A DNA stretch of 64,000 nucleotides from Narcine bancroftii. Its lineage: Eukaryota. Position numbers and translations under genes: made by a program. Below, in pieces: positions 15,850-55,994 of this stretch (position 1 is the first letter of the stretch; each line of letters opens with the position of its first letter). The notes under the pieces were generated by a model. It was not told the origin of the DNA and made no database searches. It saw nothing but the letters and a program-made list of their open reading frames with translations. Location of the stretch: assembly GCF_036971445.1 (NCBI RefSeq), contig NC_091473.1:206708001-206772000 (forward strand). Direction: 5' to 3'.

Positions 15850-18800
15850 CACTGTCTTGAGCTAATGAACTTGCACAATTAAAATTTATTGAACCATGTG
15901 TGATAGGAGACCATTATATGGTTGCCTTTCCTCTTGAGACTCACACCATACTGTACATCATGAATGAATGGGAAGTCAGGATTGTCATTCAAGCGTTTAT
16001 ATTTTGACCTTGTGCAAGCTCCTTTGAGATCAATAAACCAAACCAAGTTGTCATGGAACATGTCAATCCATCCTTCACCTGTTGATCATTGAGAGAATGT
16101 TCGATGACATGACAAATTTACTAGCATTCATTCTTTCACCTTTGTCTGGATATGTCGAGTATTAGACAGGACATATAAAATATCGACTCCAAAAATTTGA
16201 CAGTACAAACCACTTCACATTCAATGCCACCGTGAAGAATTGTACATGGTTTCTCGGCCTTCCGCTTAAAATCAAAATGGATATGTTCCCTGGTAGAATT
16301 GATGGAAATATTATTGTTCTAGCACCACACAACTATGTTGTAGATCTTTATTCTGGATTCTGACTCTTATTCTCCTTATTCATCCCACAATGGTTATAAC
16401 GTCAGTGAAATTTTAAATTGAGTTAGAGGCGTAATTGCGCAGTTATTACTACATGGATTGCAGCGTGATTCCCCTGTAGTTTGAGCAGTCTGATTTCTCG
16501 CCTTTGTTTTTGTACAGGGTGATGATCATGGCATCACGAATCTTCGCTAGGATTCTCCTAAATAGAATAATACCTAGTGTCACCAAAAATCTTCTCCCAG
16601 AATCACAGTGCACCTTTCGCGCAAACAGAGGAACTACTGACATGGTCTTTGCCCTCAGACACCTCCAGGAAAAGTGCAGAGAACAAAACAAAGGACTCTA
16701 CATCACCTTTGTTGACCTCACCAAAGCCTTCGACACCATGAGTAGGAAAGGGCTTTGGCAAATACTAGAGCGCCTCGGATGCCCACCAAAGTTCCTCAAC
16801 ATGGTTATCCAACTGCACGAAAACCAACAAGGTCGGGTCAGATACAGCAATGAGGTCTCTGAACCCTTCTCCATTAACAATGGCATGACGCAAGGCTGCG
16901 TTCTCGCACCAACCCTCCTTTCAATCTTCTTCAGCATGATGCTGAAAAAAGCCATGAAAGAACTCAACAATGAAGACGCTGTTTACATCCAGTACCGCAC
17001 GGATGGCAGGCTCTTCAATCTGAGACGCCTGCAAGCTAACACCAAGACACAAGAGCAACGTATCTGTGAACTACTCTTTGCAGACGATGCCGCTTTAGTT
17101 GCCCATCCAGAGCCAGCTCTTCAGCACTTGACGTCCTGTTTTGCAGAAACTGCCAAGATGTTTGTCCTGGAAGTCAGCCTGAAGAAAACTGAGGTCCTCC
17201 AACAGCCAGCTCCCCACCATGACTACCATACCCCCACATCTCTATCGGGCACACAAAACTCAAAACGGTCAACCAGTTTACCTATCTCGGCTGCACCATT
17301 TCATCGGATGCAAGGATCGACAACGAGATAGACAACAGACTCGCCAAGGCAAATAGCGCCTTTGGAAGACTACACAAAATAGTCTGGAAAAACAACCAAC
17401 TGAAAAACCTCACAAAGATTAGCATATACAGAGCCATTGTCATACCCACACCCCTGTTCGGCTCCGAATCATGGGTCCTTTACCAGCATCACCTACGGCT
17501 CCTAGAACGCTTCCACCAGTTTTGTCTCCACTCCATCTTCAACATTCATTGGAGCGACTTCATCTCCAACATCGAAGTACTCGTGATGGCAGAGTCCAAC
17601 AGCATTGAATCCACGCTGCTGAAGATCAAACTGCGCTGGGTATGTCACGTCACCAGAATGGAGGACCATCACCTTCCCAAGATCATGTTATATGGTGAGC
17701 TCTCCACTGGCCACCGAGACAGAGGTGCACCAAAGAAAAGGTTCAAGGACTGCTTAAAGAAAGCTCTTGTTGCCTGCCACATTGACCATCGCCAGTGGGC
17801 TGATATCGCCTCAAACCGTGCATCTTAGCACCTCACAGTTCGGCGGGCAGCAACCTCCTTTGAAGAAGACCACAGAGCCCACCTCACTGACAAAATACAA
17901 AGGAGGAAAAACCCAACACCCAACCCCAACCAACCAATTTTACCTTGCAACCACTTCAACTGTGTCTGCCTGTCCCGCATTGGATTTGTCAGCCACAAAC
18001 GAGCCTGCAGCTGACGTGGACATTAGCCCTCCATAAATCTTCATCCGCGAAGCCAAGCCAAAGAAAAGAAAGAAAACATGGATTAGAGCAATATTTGAAT
18101 TCCTTGTGTTGATGGTCTGTGTTGAAGTGTACACCATTGAATAAGATGATAAACCAAATGCTGAGGGACAGTGTCCCAATTTCTTTACTTTGGTCGTACG
18201 CTTTGCGGTTTTGTTCATGGGTGGGGATGGGGTGATTCTAAGACAATGATATTCATTCCATTTCCGAAGGTTCCCCAAAATCTTTAACACAAATATTACA
18301 ATTGAGACAATCCTGTGAACTGAAAGCCATTGTCTGAGGAGGAAACGCCCAACACATCTTGAAAACACAAACTCTGAATGTTCATTCTCTTTCTTGAACG
18401 TGGTGCATGTCTAGAAATTAATTTCCTAACATATAATTGATGCACTCTACCAAAAAGTGTCACGACAGGAATATGGAAATTGCATGAATATAATACAGCC
18501 ATGTTTCGAAATATTTTGTCTCAAATCGGAGTCAATGAGAATCTCTAACACAGATTCCATTCTCAACAGTGAAGACACAAGGCGATCATGCGAACTTTAG
18601 CTCCAATGAGATCCGACTATGTGTATTGGCACCGTCAGCATCAAGACATAAGTCTTCCTGTTATAACTTCCTGAATATTACCAGTTTAAAGGTAATATTC
18701 AAAATTTAAAGTAACGAAAGTAGTTTCCTGTGAACCAAATTTATGTAAGTATCCAGTTTAGAGATAAATTCACCATATCCACCAATTCCGCACTGCAGTG

Positions 18801-30463: not shown

Positions 30464-30770
30464 ATCGTGGTAATGGAGATTCTGTCATTCAAACTAAGTC
30501 CTCAACAGTGAAGCCAGAAGGTGAGGCGGTGACTTTCAAATGCGACTATGATACTACAGTGACAAAGTACAATCTCTTCTGGTACCGACAGCAACAAGGC
30601 AAAATAATAGAATTTGTTATGAGAAAATATTCGCTGGGTGCTGAAGATAAAGCGGATTTCGCTCAAAACCGCTTCTCTGCCGACCTCAAGACCACAAGAA
30701 AATACATCCGTTTAACCGTTTCGGCACTACAGCTGAGAGATTCTGGCATTTATTACTGCGCCTTGCAACA
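30464..30770 (+). CDS. TRAV/TRDV: TCR alpha/delta variable segment V1, V exon, open frame
   Basis: DSVIQ...VTFKCDY...LFWYRQ...NRFS...LTVSALQLRDSGIYYCALQ: both Cys, Trp and DxxxYYC present; TRAV/TRDV-style frameworks; followed by an RSS. Confidence 0.9.
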
Positions 30771-30808
30771 CACAGTGATCGAATCAAAGAAAACTTCTTA
30801 CAAAATCT
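30771..30808 (+). other. V1 recombination signal sequence, 23-type with 22-bp spacer
   Basis: CACAGTG 30771-30777, 22 nt, ACAAAATCT 30800-30808. Confidence 0.9.
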
Positions 30809-41090: not shown

Positions 41091-41397
41091 ATCGTGCTAA
41101 TGGAGATTCTGTCATTCAAACTAAGTCTTCAACAGTGAAGCCAGAAGGTGAGGCGGTGACTTTCAGATGCGACTATTATACTACAGTGACCAGGTACCAT
41201 CTATTCTGGTATCGACAGCAACAAGGCAAAATAATAGAGTTTGTTATGAGAAAATATTCGCTGGGTGTTGAAGATAAAGCTGATTTCGCACAAAACCGCT
41301 TCTCTGTCGACCTCAAGGGCACAAGAAAATACATCAGTTTAACCATTTCGGCGCTACAACTGAGAGAATCTGGCATTTATTACTGCGGCTTCAGACG
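41091..41397 (+). CDS. TRAV/TRDV: TCR alpha/delta variable segment V2, V exon, open frame
   Basis: DSVIQ...VTFRCDY...LFWYRQ...LTISALQLRESGIYYCGFR; 26 of 307 nt differ from V1. Confidence 0.9.
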
Positions 41398-41436
41398 CAC
41401 AGTGAGCGAAATCAAAGAAAACTTCTTACAAAATCT
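41398..41436 (+). other. V2 recombination signal sequence, 23-bp spacer
   Basis: CACAGTG 41398-41404, 23 nt, ACAAAATCT 41428-41436. Confidence 0.92.
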
Positions 41437-50529: not shown

Positions 50530-50825
50530 ACTGGCACACTCCGCCTGGAGAAGCAAATAAGTTAGGATTCCCTTCCTCCTGACCCATTACCCGAAACCCC
50601 ACAGTACAAAAAATAGTAACCTCTGTATTTTCATCAACAACAACGTAAACATATCAATTCATTGCGCGGCTTTGATCTGTCTACAACAACGGCACAGATA
50701 TTCCAGTGCCAAACAATTTTTTTCCACATCCTATTCCCACACAAACATGTCTATCTCTGCCTCATTCACTGCAAATCCGAGTCTAGTCACAAATTGGCAA
50801 GCAACATCTTATATTCGGGCACTCT
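50530..50825 (+). mobile_element. Penelope-like repeat, split by the ERV and resuming at 55751-55990
   Basis: gcaacatcttatattcgggcactc|...|caac...cattgactgccacaatttcc rejoins as one repeat motif. Confidence 0.5.
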
Positions 50826-52582
50826 TGTAATGGAGGGTTAAGACCATGTACCCAAATAGTTGTTTGCTTATGTGGAACTAACGACACTGGGGCCACACTC
50901 AGGTCACCTTACTTTCAGAACTAGCAGATGTAATTAATCTCAGGCATGGGGACTTATCTGAAGATACACTTTGAAATGGAATTCCACTGTGAGGCCCAGG
51001 GAAAGCAGTTGTCAAATCTGACACTCTGAAATTGACGAATTGGTCACAACCTGTCTTGCTCGAGAAGTTTTAATGTATTTGTATCTACGATATAAACCAG
51101 GAGATCATAGCATCCTGGTTCCATAATAATTAATCTTCTAAATTGTAGAACAGTATGTTCAGCTTTGATTTTGACTGAAAATGTTAGAGGGAGTGGGCGC
51201 ATGATTAATTATTTTGGGGTATAAAAGCCTTTGGTCCTGCTGCTGAAATTTAGACTCTCCGATGGGTGGGAACACCCCTTGTCAAGAAGGAAGAACAGCC
51301 AGAGTCCGAGCAACGTCCCGGTCCGGGGAGGTGAAGAAGCTGCTACCAGCGCCCTGCCAGCCTACTACAAGTGTGCCGTCCTTGCCTCGCTTTGGCAGTT
51401 GGCACCAGTCCAGGCATTGTTAAGTATGATTAGGGAGGGCTTGCATATTGTAGTTTGAAATCTGCTTAAGTCTTTGCCCATTCAGAGCCAGCTCTTCAGC
51501 GCTTGACATCCTGCTTTGCGGAAACTGCCAAAATGTTTGGCCTGGAAGTCAGCCTGAAGAAAACTGAGGTCCTCCATCAGCCAGCTCCCCACCATGACTA
51601 CCAGCCCCCCCCCCCCCCACATCTCCATCGGGCACACAAAACTCAAAACGGTCAACCAGTTTACCTATCTCGGCTGCACCATTTCATCAGATGCAAGGAT
51701 CGACAATGAGATAGACAACAGACTCGCCAAGGCAAATAGCGCCTTTGGAAGACTACACAAAAGAGTCTGGAAAAACAACCAACTGAAACACCTCACAAAG
51801 ATTAGCGTATACAGAGCCGTTGTCATACCCACACTCCTGTTCGGCTCCGAATCATGGGTCCTCTACCGGCATCACCTACGGCTCCTAGAACGCTTCCACC
51901 AGTGTTGTCTCCGCTCCATCCTCAACATCCATTGTAGCGCTTTCATCCCTAACGTCGAAGTACTCGAGATGGCAGAGGTCTACAGCATCGAGTCCACGCT
52001 GCTGAAGATCCAGCTGCGCTGGGTGGGTCACGTCTCCAGAATGGAGGACCATCGCCTTCCCAAGATCGTGTTATATGGCGAGCTCTCCACTGGCCACCGT
52101 GACAGAGGTGCACCAAAGAAAAGGTACAAGGACTGCCTAAAGAAATCTCTTGGTGCCTGCCACATTGACCACCGCCAGTGGACTGATATCGCCTCAAACC
52201 GTGCATCTTGGCGCCTCACATTTTGGCGGGCAGCAACCTCCTTTGAAGAATACCGCAGAGCCCACCTCACTGACAAAAGGCAAAGGAGGAAAAACCCAAC
52301 ACCCAACCCCAACCAACCAATTTTCCCCTGCAGCCGCTGCAACCGTGTCTGCCTGTCCCGCATCGGACTTGTCAGCCACAAACGAGCCTGCAGCTGACGT
52401 GGACTTTTACCCCCTCCATAAATCTTCGTCCGCAAAGCCAAGCCAAAGAAAAGAAGACTTTGTAATAAAGGTTTGTGTAAATTGAAATGCTCTCGGTGTG
52501 TGTCTGTGTTTTATTTCGGTAGCTCAAACACTGTGACCAATCTGAAACCAACAAAGTGAGAGGTACAAGTTTGCCCAGAACA
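50826..52582 (+). repeat. ERV 5' LTR, interrupted by an RTE
   Basis: TGTAATG...GAACA; TATA 51220-51226; AATAAA 52464-52469; ~94% identical to the 3' LTR over 51213-51470. Confidence 0.92.
51477..52453 (+). mobile_element. RTE-clade LINE 3' fragment inserted in the ERV 5' LTR
   Basis: ORF 51594-52397 (YLGCTIS, LRWVGHV, RLPK, CSRC...SH); AAAG-rich tail; TSD AAG(T/A)CTTTG at 51468-51476 and 52454-52462; same family as 16460-18075. Confidence 0.95.
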
Positions 52583-52584
52583 AT

Positions 52585-52602
52585 TGGCGCAGCGAGCAGG
52601 GT
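52585..52602 (+). other. Primer binding site, tRNA-Ser
   Basis: TGGCGCAGCGAGCAGGGT complements the 3' end ACCCUGCUCGCUGCGCCA of vertebrate tRNA-Ser(UGA) as recalled; 2 nt after the LTR. Confidence 0.85.
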
Positions 52603-52612
52603 TGGTCTCAAG

Positions 52613-54404
52613 ATGTTTAACCAAAAGAAAGAGGTGAGCCCTGAGCAGTTTTTGATTCCGGGATGGACTTACAAAGATGATGGATTTGGCATGCTGGCTA
52701 ATACCCTGTCTTGTTGGGAACACCCATCAGTTGGGATAAAAGGTTAGATCCCTTAAGTGCGCCTCTGGGAGAGCGGGTTGCCACTCTCCTTCGAGAAAGT
52801 AAGTTTCAAAAAAAAGGGGGATGCTGACGGATGGTTTTTGACTGCTGGCCACAGCCTTATGCCGCACGGTTCAGCGTGAAGTAGAATTAGTTCAGCAGCA
52901 AGTGGAGTCTGAACGTAAGAGAAAACAACTAGAGGAGGAAGTAGAGACTATGCGACAACGCTGCTCGATGATGAGCGAAATTGTTAGCACCAGTCAGGAC
53001 CGAGCCAAAAAATGGGAGGATAAGCATATTCAAACGATCTGCCATAATATTAAACTCCGGCAGCAGCTCTGTGTGAATAAGGAAAAGCAAGGAATAGAAC
53101 CTGATCCACATCGTATTCGTCCCGTGATAAGGAATGGCGACGTTCCTGATGTAATTGATGATTGAGACGGGAATATCTGGTATGATGATAATGGTAATAA
53201 TGCAGATACCCCTCGGCATGTGCCTGACATACTCCCCTCTCCCTCCGCTGTTCAAGCCCACCCCGTAAGGCAGCGGACTTCCCAAGCAGACGAAGGCGAA
53301 AGGGGGGATGATGTAAGTGTAGAAACTGAAGAAACAGGTGTTCCGATCTCCCAAGCGGATCCAGGGGAAGGCTCCCAAACCCCTATTTATGCTCGGTGGG
53401 ATCCCCCCTCAACGGGATGGCCTCAGCAGCCTCCCGTCCATTGGGTAGAGGGCCCTATGGGCCAGAGTGGGAACAGGGGTCGGGAACAGTTAACAAAAAT
53501 ACGTGACTTCACTATAAAAGAGCTGGCAGCCTTGGAGATCGATTTAGGCAAACGACAGGAGAAACTTTGGCGGCCTGGCTCCTGCGTGTTTGGGAGCAAG
53601 GGAGAGGTAGCATATGCCTGACCTCTGAGGAATTGTTGGGATTAGGATCATTAACTACTGATATTCGAGTCACTGCCGAATTACATGGCAGAAGGAGAGA
53701 TGTAGACTATTTGCTTGCTACCCTAGGAGAAGCCTTGTTACGGGTGTATCCGTCACCAATAGATTGGGATTTGCATTTGCAGAACAATTGGGGCGCACCA
53801 GAGGAGGGTATAGCAGAGATTCGCCAACAGGTCGTGGCCTCTGCTTTGTATGCGGGGTGCCTGAGGCTGTGGATACATGGGGGGAGCTCCGATGAAGAAT
53901 TATTCACATCCAGAATGCATACCCGATTGGTTCGTTCAGCCCAACCTACTGTACGGGGACTGGTCCTGTCTGTAACTAGTCTGCTAATAGGGCACCTCGT
54001 GTCTGAAGCAGTGCATGCCCTATCTGGACTCCAAAAATTGGAGTTGGGAAGTACAATCCACTCACGTACAACCCAGGTTAAATCAGACAGACAGGATTAA
54101 AGGAGAGGGGCTGCTGCTAATAACGGACTGACCAGAAAGGACCTTTTTCTAACTTTGTTAAAGTTAGGGGTACTTAAAAGTGCTATTGATGGAAAACCTA
54201 CTACGGCCCTATATGCCCTTTATAAGAGGAAGGCAGGGGAACATCATCCCCAGCTGCAGGGTCCTCCTGGCCCAGCTGTGCCTTCTGCTCCCACCGCTGC
54301 TCCTATCGAGCCAGCTTCTCCTGGTGCAACAATGGGTTAAACAGGCTCTTAAGGTTAACAATAGCATGTGGTCCTGAAAGCCCCCAAACCCTTCTGAAGC
54401 CTGA
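52613..54404 (+). pseudogene. gag: ERV gag, frameshifted
   Basis: ATG 52613 MFNQKK...IPGWTY; coiled-coil segment; AAWLLRVWEQGRGSICLTSEELLGLGSL; LGVLKSAIDGKPTTALYALYKRK, matching recalled ERV-L/ERV-S Gag motifs. 3' boundary uncertain. Confidence 0.8.
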
Positions 54405-54935
54405 AGATGTGGGCAGGATTCCCGTGTCTACTCCATCGAGACACGGCGCACACACGGGGATCCGCGGCCCTACATACCGTTAACAATCCACTGGGGTAGG
54501 GGTAATAATCACCAATACTTGGCTTCGGTCGACACCGGTGCAGAGCATTCGGTGATTCCTGGTAACCCCGACCTCTGGAACGGACCCACATTTCGAATAG
54601 AAGGGATGGGAGGGGCGATCACCCTGGTGAAGGAAATAAAAGTCCGCGCCACGGTGGATGATGGTCCTTCCCCAATATGGTTACATGCATTGGTAGCTGC
54701 CACTGACGAGTGTATCCTGGGTATTAATATGTTGGCCAGTACAGCCCTTAATATGAGCCAAGTGGGGTTTGCATTGGGAATTCGGACTATTACATAAAGT
54801 TTAGTGGTGGGTCAGGCCAAGTGGGATCCCGTGGTGGTGTCACACACCCCCCCACCCCCAAAACCTGTATGCATTCCACAATATCGCCTCCCTGGAGGGC
54901 AGGGGGAGATTACTGCCACCATTGATGCTTTGAAA
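54405..54935 (+). pseudogene. pro-pol: ERV protease plus first residues of RT, truncated by deletion
   Basis: GDPRPYIPLTIHWGRGN...VDTGAEHSVIPGNP...ECILGI; VGQAKWDP...QYRLPGGQGEITATIDALKE. Confidence 0.88.
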
Positions 54936-55750
54936 GAATTCAACTGTGAGGCCCAGGGAAAGCAATTGTCAAATGCGACACACTGAAATTGACGAATTAG
55001 TCACAACCTGTCTTGCTCGAGAAGTTTTAATAAGTCTTTGTATCTAAGAGATAAACCAGGAGATCATAGCATCCTGGTTCCATAATAATTAATCTTCTAA
55101 ATTGTAGAACAGTATGTTCAGCTTTGATTTTGACTGAAAAATGTTAGAGGGAGTGGGCGCATGATTAATTGTTCTTTCCTAAATGTAGGATAGCATGGCA
55201 TTGCAAAGCCTGAGAAGTTTCAATAGGTCTTTGTATCTACGAGATAAACCAGGAGATCATGGCATCCTGGTTCCATAATAATTAATCTTCTAAATTGTCG
55301 AACAGTATGTTCAGCTTTGATTTTGACTGACAAATGTTAGACGGAGTGGGCACATGATTAATTGTTTTTGGGGTATATAAGCCTGTGGTCCTGCTGCTGA
55401 AGTTTAGACACTCCGAGGGGTGGGAAAACCCTTTGTCAAGAATGAAGAACAGCCAGAGTCCGAGCAACGTCCCGGTCGGGGGAGGTGAAGAAGCTGCTAC
55501 CGGCACCCTGGCAATCTACTATAAGTGTGCCGTCCTTGCCTCGCTTTGGCAGTTGGGACCAGTCCAGGCATTGTTAAGTATGATTAGGGAGGGCTTGCAT
55601 ATTGTAGTTTGAAATCTGCTTAAGACTTTGTAATAAAGATTTGTGTAAACTGAAGTGCTCTCGGTGTGTGTGTGTGTTTTCTTTCGGTAGCTCAAACACT
55701 GCGACCAATCTTAAACGAACAAAGTGAGAGGTACAAGTTTACCCTGAACA
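54928..55750 (+). repeat. ERV 3' LTR lacking its first ~143 nt, with two 155-bp U3 repeats
   Basis: Matches the 5' LTR from 50969 on; repeats 55019-55173 and 55212-55366; TATA 55374; ends GAACA. Confidence 0.92.
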
Positions 55751-55994
55751 ACTCCCCAACTAAACGAACTTACCATTGACTGCCACAATTTCCATTAAAC
55801 CCCTCCTGGAATCTTCTTATTTTACTGTTCTTGTTGTCTATTTTACTCCAGTTCCACGGCTATTTGCGGCAATCCCCCCCCCCCACCCCCTTTTCGGCTC
55901 ATTTTATTTTTATCTTCTGCCTTCCCACTTCTACCCACCTATGGCCATTTACCTGTTGTCGTGTGCTCATTCTCCTGTCCCTTCATGTATGTTC

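Follow-up and report, generated by a model that had tools for sequence, protein, structure and literature searches.

A stretch of 64,000 nucleotides from the genome of the electric ray Narcine bancroftii (NC_091473.1, positions 206,708,001 to 206,772,000; the whole stretch is called the window below) holds, at 50826 to 55750, a provirus that a preliminary description, made from the letters alone, had assigned to class III of the endogenous retroviruses (ERVs). We consider it very probable that this is a dead, deleted provirus of a multicopy ERV-L-related electric-ray family, and that this family likely spread by reinfection through a gamma-type envelope protein (Env). The value of the locus lies in the young env-bearing ray lineage behind the window copy. 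The host is a cartilaginous fish, as had been supposed, with the family proteins of this genome being 95-99% identical to records labelled Narcine bancroftii.

The provirus and its locus

Fifty-six of the 66 genome matches to the variable (V) exons of the window (Table 1) fall in one 1.7-Mb array around it, and single C1-set exons are found downstream of this array. Since the V exons carry recombination signals, match structures of the T-cell receptor (TCR) alpha/delta chains, stand in an array and are followed by C1-set exons, the locus is likely a TCR alpha/delta V array, which agrees with the probable TCR locus proposed before. Nothing suggests that the provirus plays a role in it. A broken C1-set exon lies 14 kb past the window (L067:4550-4780, minus strand) and a second, open one some 230 kb past it (L075:363-569, plus strand); we take both, by eye, to be TCR-delta-like. 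Multi-exon clusters resembling immunoglobulin heavy chains are found further on (C11:207.5-208.2 Mb).

The paired long terminal repeats (LTRs), the gag start codon about 10 nt past the primer binding site (PBS) and the protein motifs quoted in the preliminary description are all present in the sequence, the motifs in the listed frames. By matching the PBS, given there as 18 nt for tRNA-Ser, to host tRNA genes, we found that it is one nucleotide longer and exactly complementary to the final 16 bases of a tRNA-Ser(TGA) gene in the host genome followed by CCA. Likewise, the 4/5 match of the 5-bp target-site duplication is credible because relatives carry perfect 5-bp duplications (12/13 protease-selected and 13/14 env-selected copies). 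The two LTRs differ at 38 of 618 aligned bases, that is 6.2% (Kimura two-parameter distance 0.064) and close to the 6% estimated before, which gives an age of about 15-150 million years with the rates of 2.2e-9 and 2.2e-10 quoted in PMC4422223. These differences (50977-52582 versus 54936-55750) comprise 23 transversions and 15 transitions, which is odd for neutral decay; several young LTR pairs of the family are likewise separated by transversions only, and the cause is unexplained.

The window copy is a dead, ordinary fossil, with 91-93% identity to family copies in gag, protease and LTR. Its gag has four frame changes (near 52711, 52810-52880, 53520-53535 and 54325-54333) and stops at 52839, 53163 and 54098. 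Moreover, a deletion that begins near codon 175 of pro-pol and reaches into the U3 region of the 3' LTR removed, by comparison with full-length copies, the rest of pol, env, the polypurine tract (PPT) and the first ~145 bp of U3, so that the copy is without the reverse transcriptase (RT) core, RNase H, integrase, env and PPT. Given that the 5' LTR retains the U3 start that is missing from the 3' LTR, the deletion probably postdates integration. The copy would have integrated earlier, as its LTRs 6% apart suggest, before a long interspersed nuclear element (LINE) entered its 5' LTR and 4.3 kb were lost through microhomology. The gag breaks, the LINE, the deletion and a 193-bp duplication in the 3' LTR were all absent from the preliminary description. 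The LINE, which we take to be an RTE element by the look of its protein, is ~97% identical to other RTE copies, and a Pfam search of its frame assigned no family; a further fragment of the same LINE family lies at 16480-17900 of the window. No further copy of the provirus family was found in the neighbouring 90 kb.

Table 1. Features of the provirus and of the V exons, numbered from the first letter of the window
Feature	Position	Strand	Remark
V-set exon with recombination signal	30502..30808	+	spacer 22; closest single-chain matches TCR alpha/delta V
Second V exon	41129..41436	+	86% identical to the first; recombination signal with spacer 23
Left target-site duplication	50821..50825	.	ACTCT
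5' LTR	50826..52582	+	TGT...ACA; ~770 bp of LTR sequence split by the RTE LINE; TATA-like 51220, AATAAA 52464
RTE LINE, 5'-truncated	51477..52453	+	977 bp, later insertion directly before the poly(A) signal; 9-bp duplication 51468-51476 / 52454-52462
PBS	52585..52603	+	19-nt perfect complement of the tRNA-Ser(TGA) 3' end plus CCA
ERV-L-type gag, broken	52613..54404	+	ATG at 52613; ends in TGA in frame with pro
Predicted splice donor	52634..52639	+	GTGAGC after gag codon 7; likely for an env mRNA in complete copies
Aspartic protease	54405..54794	+	DTGA at 54531
Stop codon, then first ~45 RT codons	54795..54935	+	stops at the deletion junction
8-bp microhomology at the deletion	54928..54935	+	partner 50969-50976 in the 5' LTR; ~4.3 kb lost
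3' LTR, 5'-truncated	54936..55750	+	193-bp tandem duplication (55019 and 55212); AATAAA 55632
Right target-site duplication	55751..55755	.	ACTCC; 4/5 match to the left flank

Family copies in the electric-ray genome

By searching the host genome (3.33 Gb) with protease, RT and LTR DNA, we obtained 1,399, 853 and 1,960 first-look candidates, respectively, which are not copy numbers and of which the best 40 were listed each. The copies examined were the 20 best protease matches, 20 env matches and 11 close LTR matches; among the env matches, 14 were taken as the young group of the family, three as older subfamilies and three as another family. These copies include the better-preserved relatives that the preliminary description had expected. 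Full-length proviruses measure 8.05-8.5 kb and are built as LTR (773-989 bp)-PBS(Ser)-gag-TGA-pro-pol-env-PPT-LTR, with frames of ~600 codons (gag), 1,043 codons (pro-pol) and ~500 codons (env), and with TGT...ACA ends.

The three genes gag, pol and env are all open in 11 of 34 hand-picked loci (1/20 protease-selected and 10/14 env-selected), which represent six insertion sites. The ten env-selected intact loci correspond to five insertion sites and have LTR pairs 0-0.5% apart, with strictly identical LTRs in none of the ten, all measurable: the pairs show 1-5 differences, or one length difference without substitution. One intact locus offered no 3' end for such a measurement. Identical LTRs were found in 7 of 13 measurable protease-selected copies, all internally deleted; the env-less deleted copies may have been mobilised in trans by complete ones. 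With the two rates given above, LTR pairs with 1-2 differences date to 0.2-5 million years, so that the family may or may not be active at present.

Five of the loci (L039-L043), all on one contig, have a common insertion site inside a satellite, and L045-L046 share another; the proviruses at shared insertion sites were multiplied by segmental duplication. In the LTRs, a U3 unit of ~190-210 bp often differs in copy number between the two LTRs of one provirus (L035, L038, L048 and the window copy at 55019-55404). The same genome holds a second young ERV family (L049-L051), which belongs to class I, scores 297 bits to the RT of murine leukaemia virus (MLV) and has a 569-aa env frame and LTR pairs >99% identical; one class III family copy is nested inside a copy of this class I family (L047 flanks). 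In read data, env depth was ~20 times that of the flank in one DNA run, a figure that we did not use as a copy number, and apparent empty-site joints were rejected, as they stem from other copies of the repeat that holds the provirus concerned. One run labelled as another organism contains 78% of env words as well as an identical flank, whereas none turned up in two runs of that sample; the label may be wrong, or material may have been carried over. A scan of viral contigs with the family Pol gave no match.

Relationships of Pol and known relatives

Full-length copies encode a DTG protease, RVT_1, a tether, RNase H and rve in the order protease-RT-tether-RNase H-integrase, with YIDD in the RT. 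Over 988 aa, the Pol of one full-length copy shares 46% identity (840 bits) with P0020. We took this protein as MuERV-L Pol because its cluster includes a mouse record and because the spacing of its motifs agrees with Table 2 of PMC8278194; in the RT-RNase H region, identity to this protein reaches 51%. Another relative, P0163, was named XtERV-S from its motif spacing against the same table. Among relatives that bear a name, MuERV-L and XtERV-S come nearest to the family. The best named Pol relatives are stingray, amphibian, lungfish, teleost, bird and mouse proteins. Against solved structures, Pol scored 165 bits with MLV RT, 162 with foamy virus and 109 with Ty3, compared with the 297 bits to MLV of the class I family described above. 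Gag is devoid of a CCHC finger and of an N-terminal glycine, and is 46% identical to a stingray protein annotated as Fv1-like.

In the most careful tree (32 rows by 616 columns, after 14 rows had been dropped from a 46-row set), the class III group including the family was supported at 100/100, which upholds the class proposed in the preliminary description with RT and Pol taken from other genome copies. Within it, the family, two Hemitrygon lineages and Hypanus form a clade of rays only (97/97), and joining the rays with class I rows was rejected (p-AU 0.0004). A white-shark (Carcharodon) element groups with those of killifish and mudskipper, apart from the rays, and a single chondrichthyan clade was rejected (p-AU 0.0005; this group was named after an earlier tree had been seen). 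Sharks and rays must therefore have acquired viruses of the ERV-L type on two or more occasions.

In mammals, where ERV-L is most familiar, it is an intracellular element without env; its PBS is of the Leu type, and no infectious member is known to us. The ray family has an env frame of ~500 aa (PF00429) and so departs from the env-less state of strict ERV-L. For dUTPase we found no Pfam match, no motif and a gap relative to MuERV-L, the stretch between integrase core and C-terminal domain being ~100 aa shorter. Being without dUTPase and with env, the family is related to ERV-L but does not belong to ERV-L proper. Another class III Pol relative, P0276, carries thymidylate kinase, thymidine kinase and dUTPase domains in one frame.

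The closest described counterpart that we know in some detail is XtERV-S of Xenopus tropicalis (Yedavalli et al. 2021, PMC8278194). According to the parts of that report available to us, it shares with the ray family a class III gag-pol with a gamma-type env, the in-frame TGA between gag and pol, YIDD, a 19-nt tRNA-Ser PBS, 5-bp duplications, TGT...ACA ends, a Gag with a PSAP motif and with neither CCHC nor myristoylation signal, and young intact copies beside deleted ones. By the same parts, the ray family differs in its separate branch, in having no dUTPase, in its many more copies, in its leader (~10 nt versus 158 bp), in its env donor (predicted inside gag versus in the LTR) and in its CXXC, which lies in the middle of the surface subunit (residue 162) and not near its start. 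MuERV-L and HERV-L share with the family the domain order, YIDD, an ERV-L-type Gag, a Pol 46% identical and, by the available parts of PMC8278194, the 5-bp duplication; the ray family differs by its env, its missing dUTPase and its Ser PBS. HERV-S, known to us by its description in the same parts and not by sequence comparison, has a Ser PBS and env and is without dUTPase. However, a Ser PBS alone does not make an ERV-S, because XtERV-S has one as well.

The preliminary description had suggested that the provirus extends the host range of class III to cartilaginous fish. This part of its proposal fails: class III is already known in these animals, and related retroviruses have been catalogued in sharks. 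A whale-shark element, Rh_ty_ERV3 (Xu et al. 2018, PMC6001957), has a cartilaginous host and the same Gag motifs by eye, without alignment; it adjoins HERVL and Murine_ERVL in the label order of S2 Fig, the part of the source at hand, where branches are not visible. Beside it in that order stands an ERV of Nothobranchius, in keeping with the other shark lineage, that of Carcharodon with teleosts. In addition, 2,843 clade III RT loci were counted in six chondrichthyan genomes (Blanco-Melo et al. 2024, PMC11089739, Table 2). ERV-SA.a-Ppe (Chen et al., bioRxiv 10.1101/2021.11.23.469661) also combines a class III Pol with a gamma-type Env; it is known to us by the authors' description in the available part of the preprint, where it is called related to snakehead retrovirus (SnRV), and may or may not belong to the ray clade. 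By our own reading of the code, "Ppe" probably denotes Pristis pectinata, a sawfish and hence a ray, although the available text does not name it.

The other part, an undescribed family, stood for the ray lineage itself: we found no description of it in the literature searched (Dfam, Repbase and most subscription journals lay outside this search), and the available parts of PMC9967133, PMC12287698 and PMC4977317 held nothing specific on rays. It thus seems that neither the ray lineage nor its young intact copies have been described. In the accessible files of a survey of invading ERVs (PMC10435555, Supplementary Data 8), such elements occur in 0/13 cartilaginous fish, and the genus Narcine was not found in the files searched. 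As far as these partial sources tell, the ray lineage is the second well-preserved env-bearing example after XtERV-S, for which the available text of PMC8278194 reports no evidence of virus production, and it fills a gap in that survey.

Envelope and mode of spread

The Env of the family carries a CXXC motif (CWVC), a furin-like site (RHRR), an immunosuppressive motif of the LQNR type, CX6CC and a membrane anchor. Related Envs come from rays, sharks and fish and are of the gamma type. The ratio of nonsynonymous to synonymous changes (dN/dS) in env was 0.15-0.32 in all 15 pairs of six young copies, with the upper bootstrap limit below 1 in 14 of them, and 0.25-0.29 in all 18 pairs of young with old copies, a level similar to that of gag and pol. 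These values, drawn from the aligned genomic copies, show purifying selection on env. An env under selection commonly indicates that an element spreads via an extracellular step, and reinfection is therefore the best reading.

We also propose how Env could be expressed. Gag-Pol would be made via read-through of the TGA, and in the env mRNA a donor behind gag codon 7 would be spliced to an acceptor immediately upstream of a signal-like hydrophobic stretch, so that Env would take its start codon from gag, whose basic first codons would begin the signal peptide. Alpharetroviruses offer a precedent for an env leader taken from gag, for which a literature search gave no confirmation. A script tally found the donor GAG|GTGAGC in 38 of the 41 copies holding the region, one of them ending GTGAGCTC, and the acceptor TTC(C/T)AG, pyrimidine-rich and placed before the hydrophobic env start, is present in 37/37 copies; both are in phase 0. 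In the young copies, the first Met of the env frame comes no earlier than residue 178. In addition, two annotated isoforms of host genes (P0220 and P0221) enter the env frame at the predicted acceptor point. Taken together, these points make the env splice likely. The very short leader is probably explained in the same way, since the donor sits inside gag and the Env start would be spliced from it. Among the runs listed as containing the sequence, none is recorded as RNA. Two runs that we guessed to be RNA also cover the unique flank and show no enrichment of env over it, so that they are uninformative on expression; the predicted env joint was not among the 15 of 68 joints listed in those runs.

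Several points weigh against a family that spread by reinfection as an ERV-L relative. One old env pair has a dN/dS of 0.96, the pairs share history, and the young-copy values come from 3-31 changes each. The copies were chosen as best matches, which over-represents young and intact ones. The splice and the read-through are predicted and unseen in RNA, and in 12 of 38 copies, for the most part env-deleted ones, an in-frame ATG lies a short way upstream of the acceptor, which makes another start possible. Moreover, grouping with MuERV-L and XtERV-S reached 93-97 in three quick trees only and is unresolved in the careful one, and the trees hold no named HERV-S, SnRV or foamy sequence; protein searches for these named Pols found none among the matches, and one clade probed on the way turned out to be a class III group containing rodents.

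The family could instead be an intracellular retrotransposon like MuERV-L, its env a passenger retained merely through the youth of the copies. Env-less deleted copies are indeed common among those fetched, including the seven with identical LTRs, and the first-look candidates for RT and LTR far exceed the env copies listed. Yet env keeps a dN/dS of ~0.25 across subfamilies at a synonymous distance of 0.43-0.53 as well as among young copies, and the fusion motifs of Env are intact, which makes a passenger env improbable. That the family is an SnRV-like, epsilon or Gypsy element of the kinds known from sharks would agree with Han 2015, who found just SnRV-like and epsilon-like lineages in the elephant shark, and with the term SnRV-related used in the available part of the Chen et al. 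preprint. We hold this for very unlikely, given the 51% RT-RNase H identity to MuERV-L and the Gag without CCHC finger whose stingray homologues are annotated as Fv1-like. Affinity of the RT to Gypsy or epsilon viruses, named in the preliminary description as the outcome that would speak against class III, is contradicted by class I and Gypsy rows falling outside the clade. As for the window copy, co-option for regulating the TCR V array could be imagined from its position among ~55 V segments on the same strand, but its decay is ordinary, its promoter LTR is interrupted and other family copies lie in the region too (e.g. C11:205.79 Mb), which leaves this idea scarcely credible.

Besides past reinfection, we asked whether germ-line invasion by the family continues today, which would make it an ERVi as defined by Wang and Han 2023. 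The fully open env-selected loci with their near-identical LTR pairs speak for it, and several of the LTR differences are transversions only and may be assembly errors. On the other hand, strictly identical LTRs are missing from all ten intact loci, and with a slow shark clock, for which PMC4422223 assumes 2.2e-10 per site per year, 1-2 differences amount to 2-5 million years, so that we judge ongoing invasion rather doubtful. We can thus offer only tentatively, as a view we think somewhat unlikely, that an envelope-bearing, dUTPase-less ERV-L-type virus has long circulated in rays and still enters the electric-ray germ line, with the start of its Env spliced from gag. If true, cartilaginous fish would have their first invading retrovirus, and the infectious ERV-L ancestor a living model.

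Finally, env-deleted copies show a feature of their own. Past the env acceptor, 11/11 of them (L013, L016-L018, L020, L023, L024, L026, L028, L030 and L032) keep an open frame of 131-132 aa with a signal-like stretch and a membrane anchor. Annotated isoforms of NKAIN3-like (P0220) and HSPBAP1 (P0221) end in this frame with 97-99% identity, and its retention may reflect a chance in-frame deletion plus exonisation.

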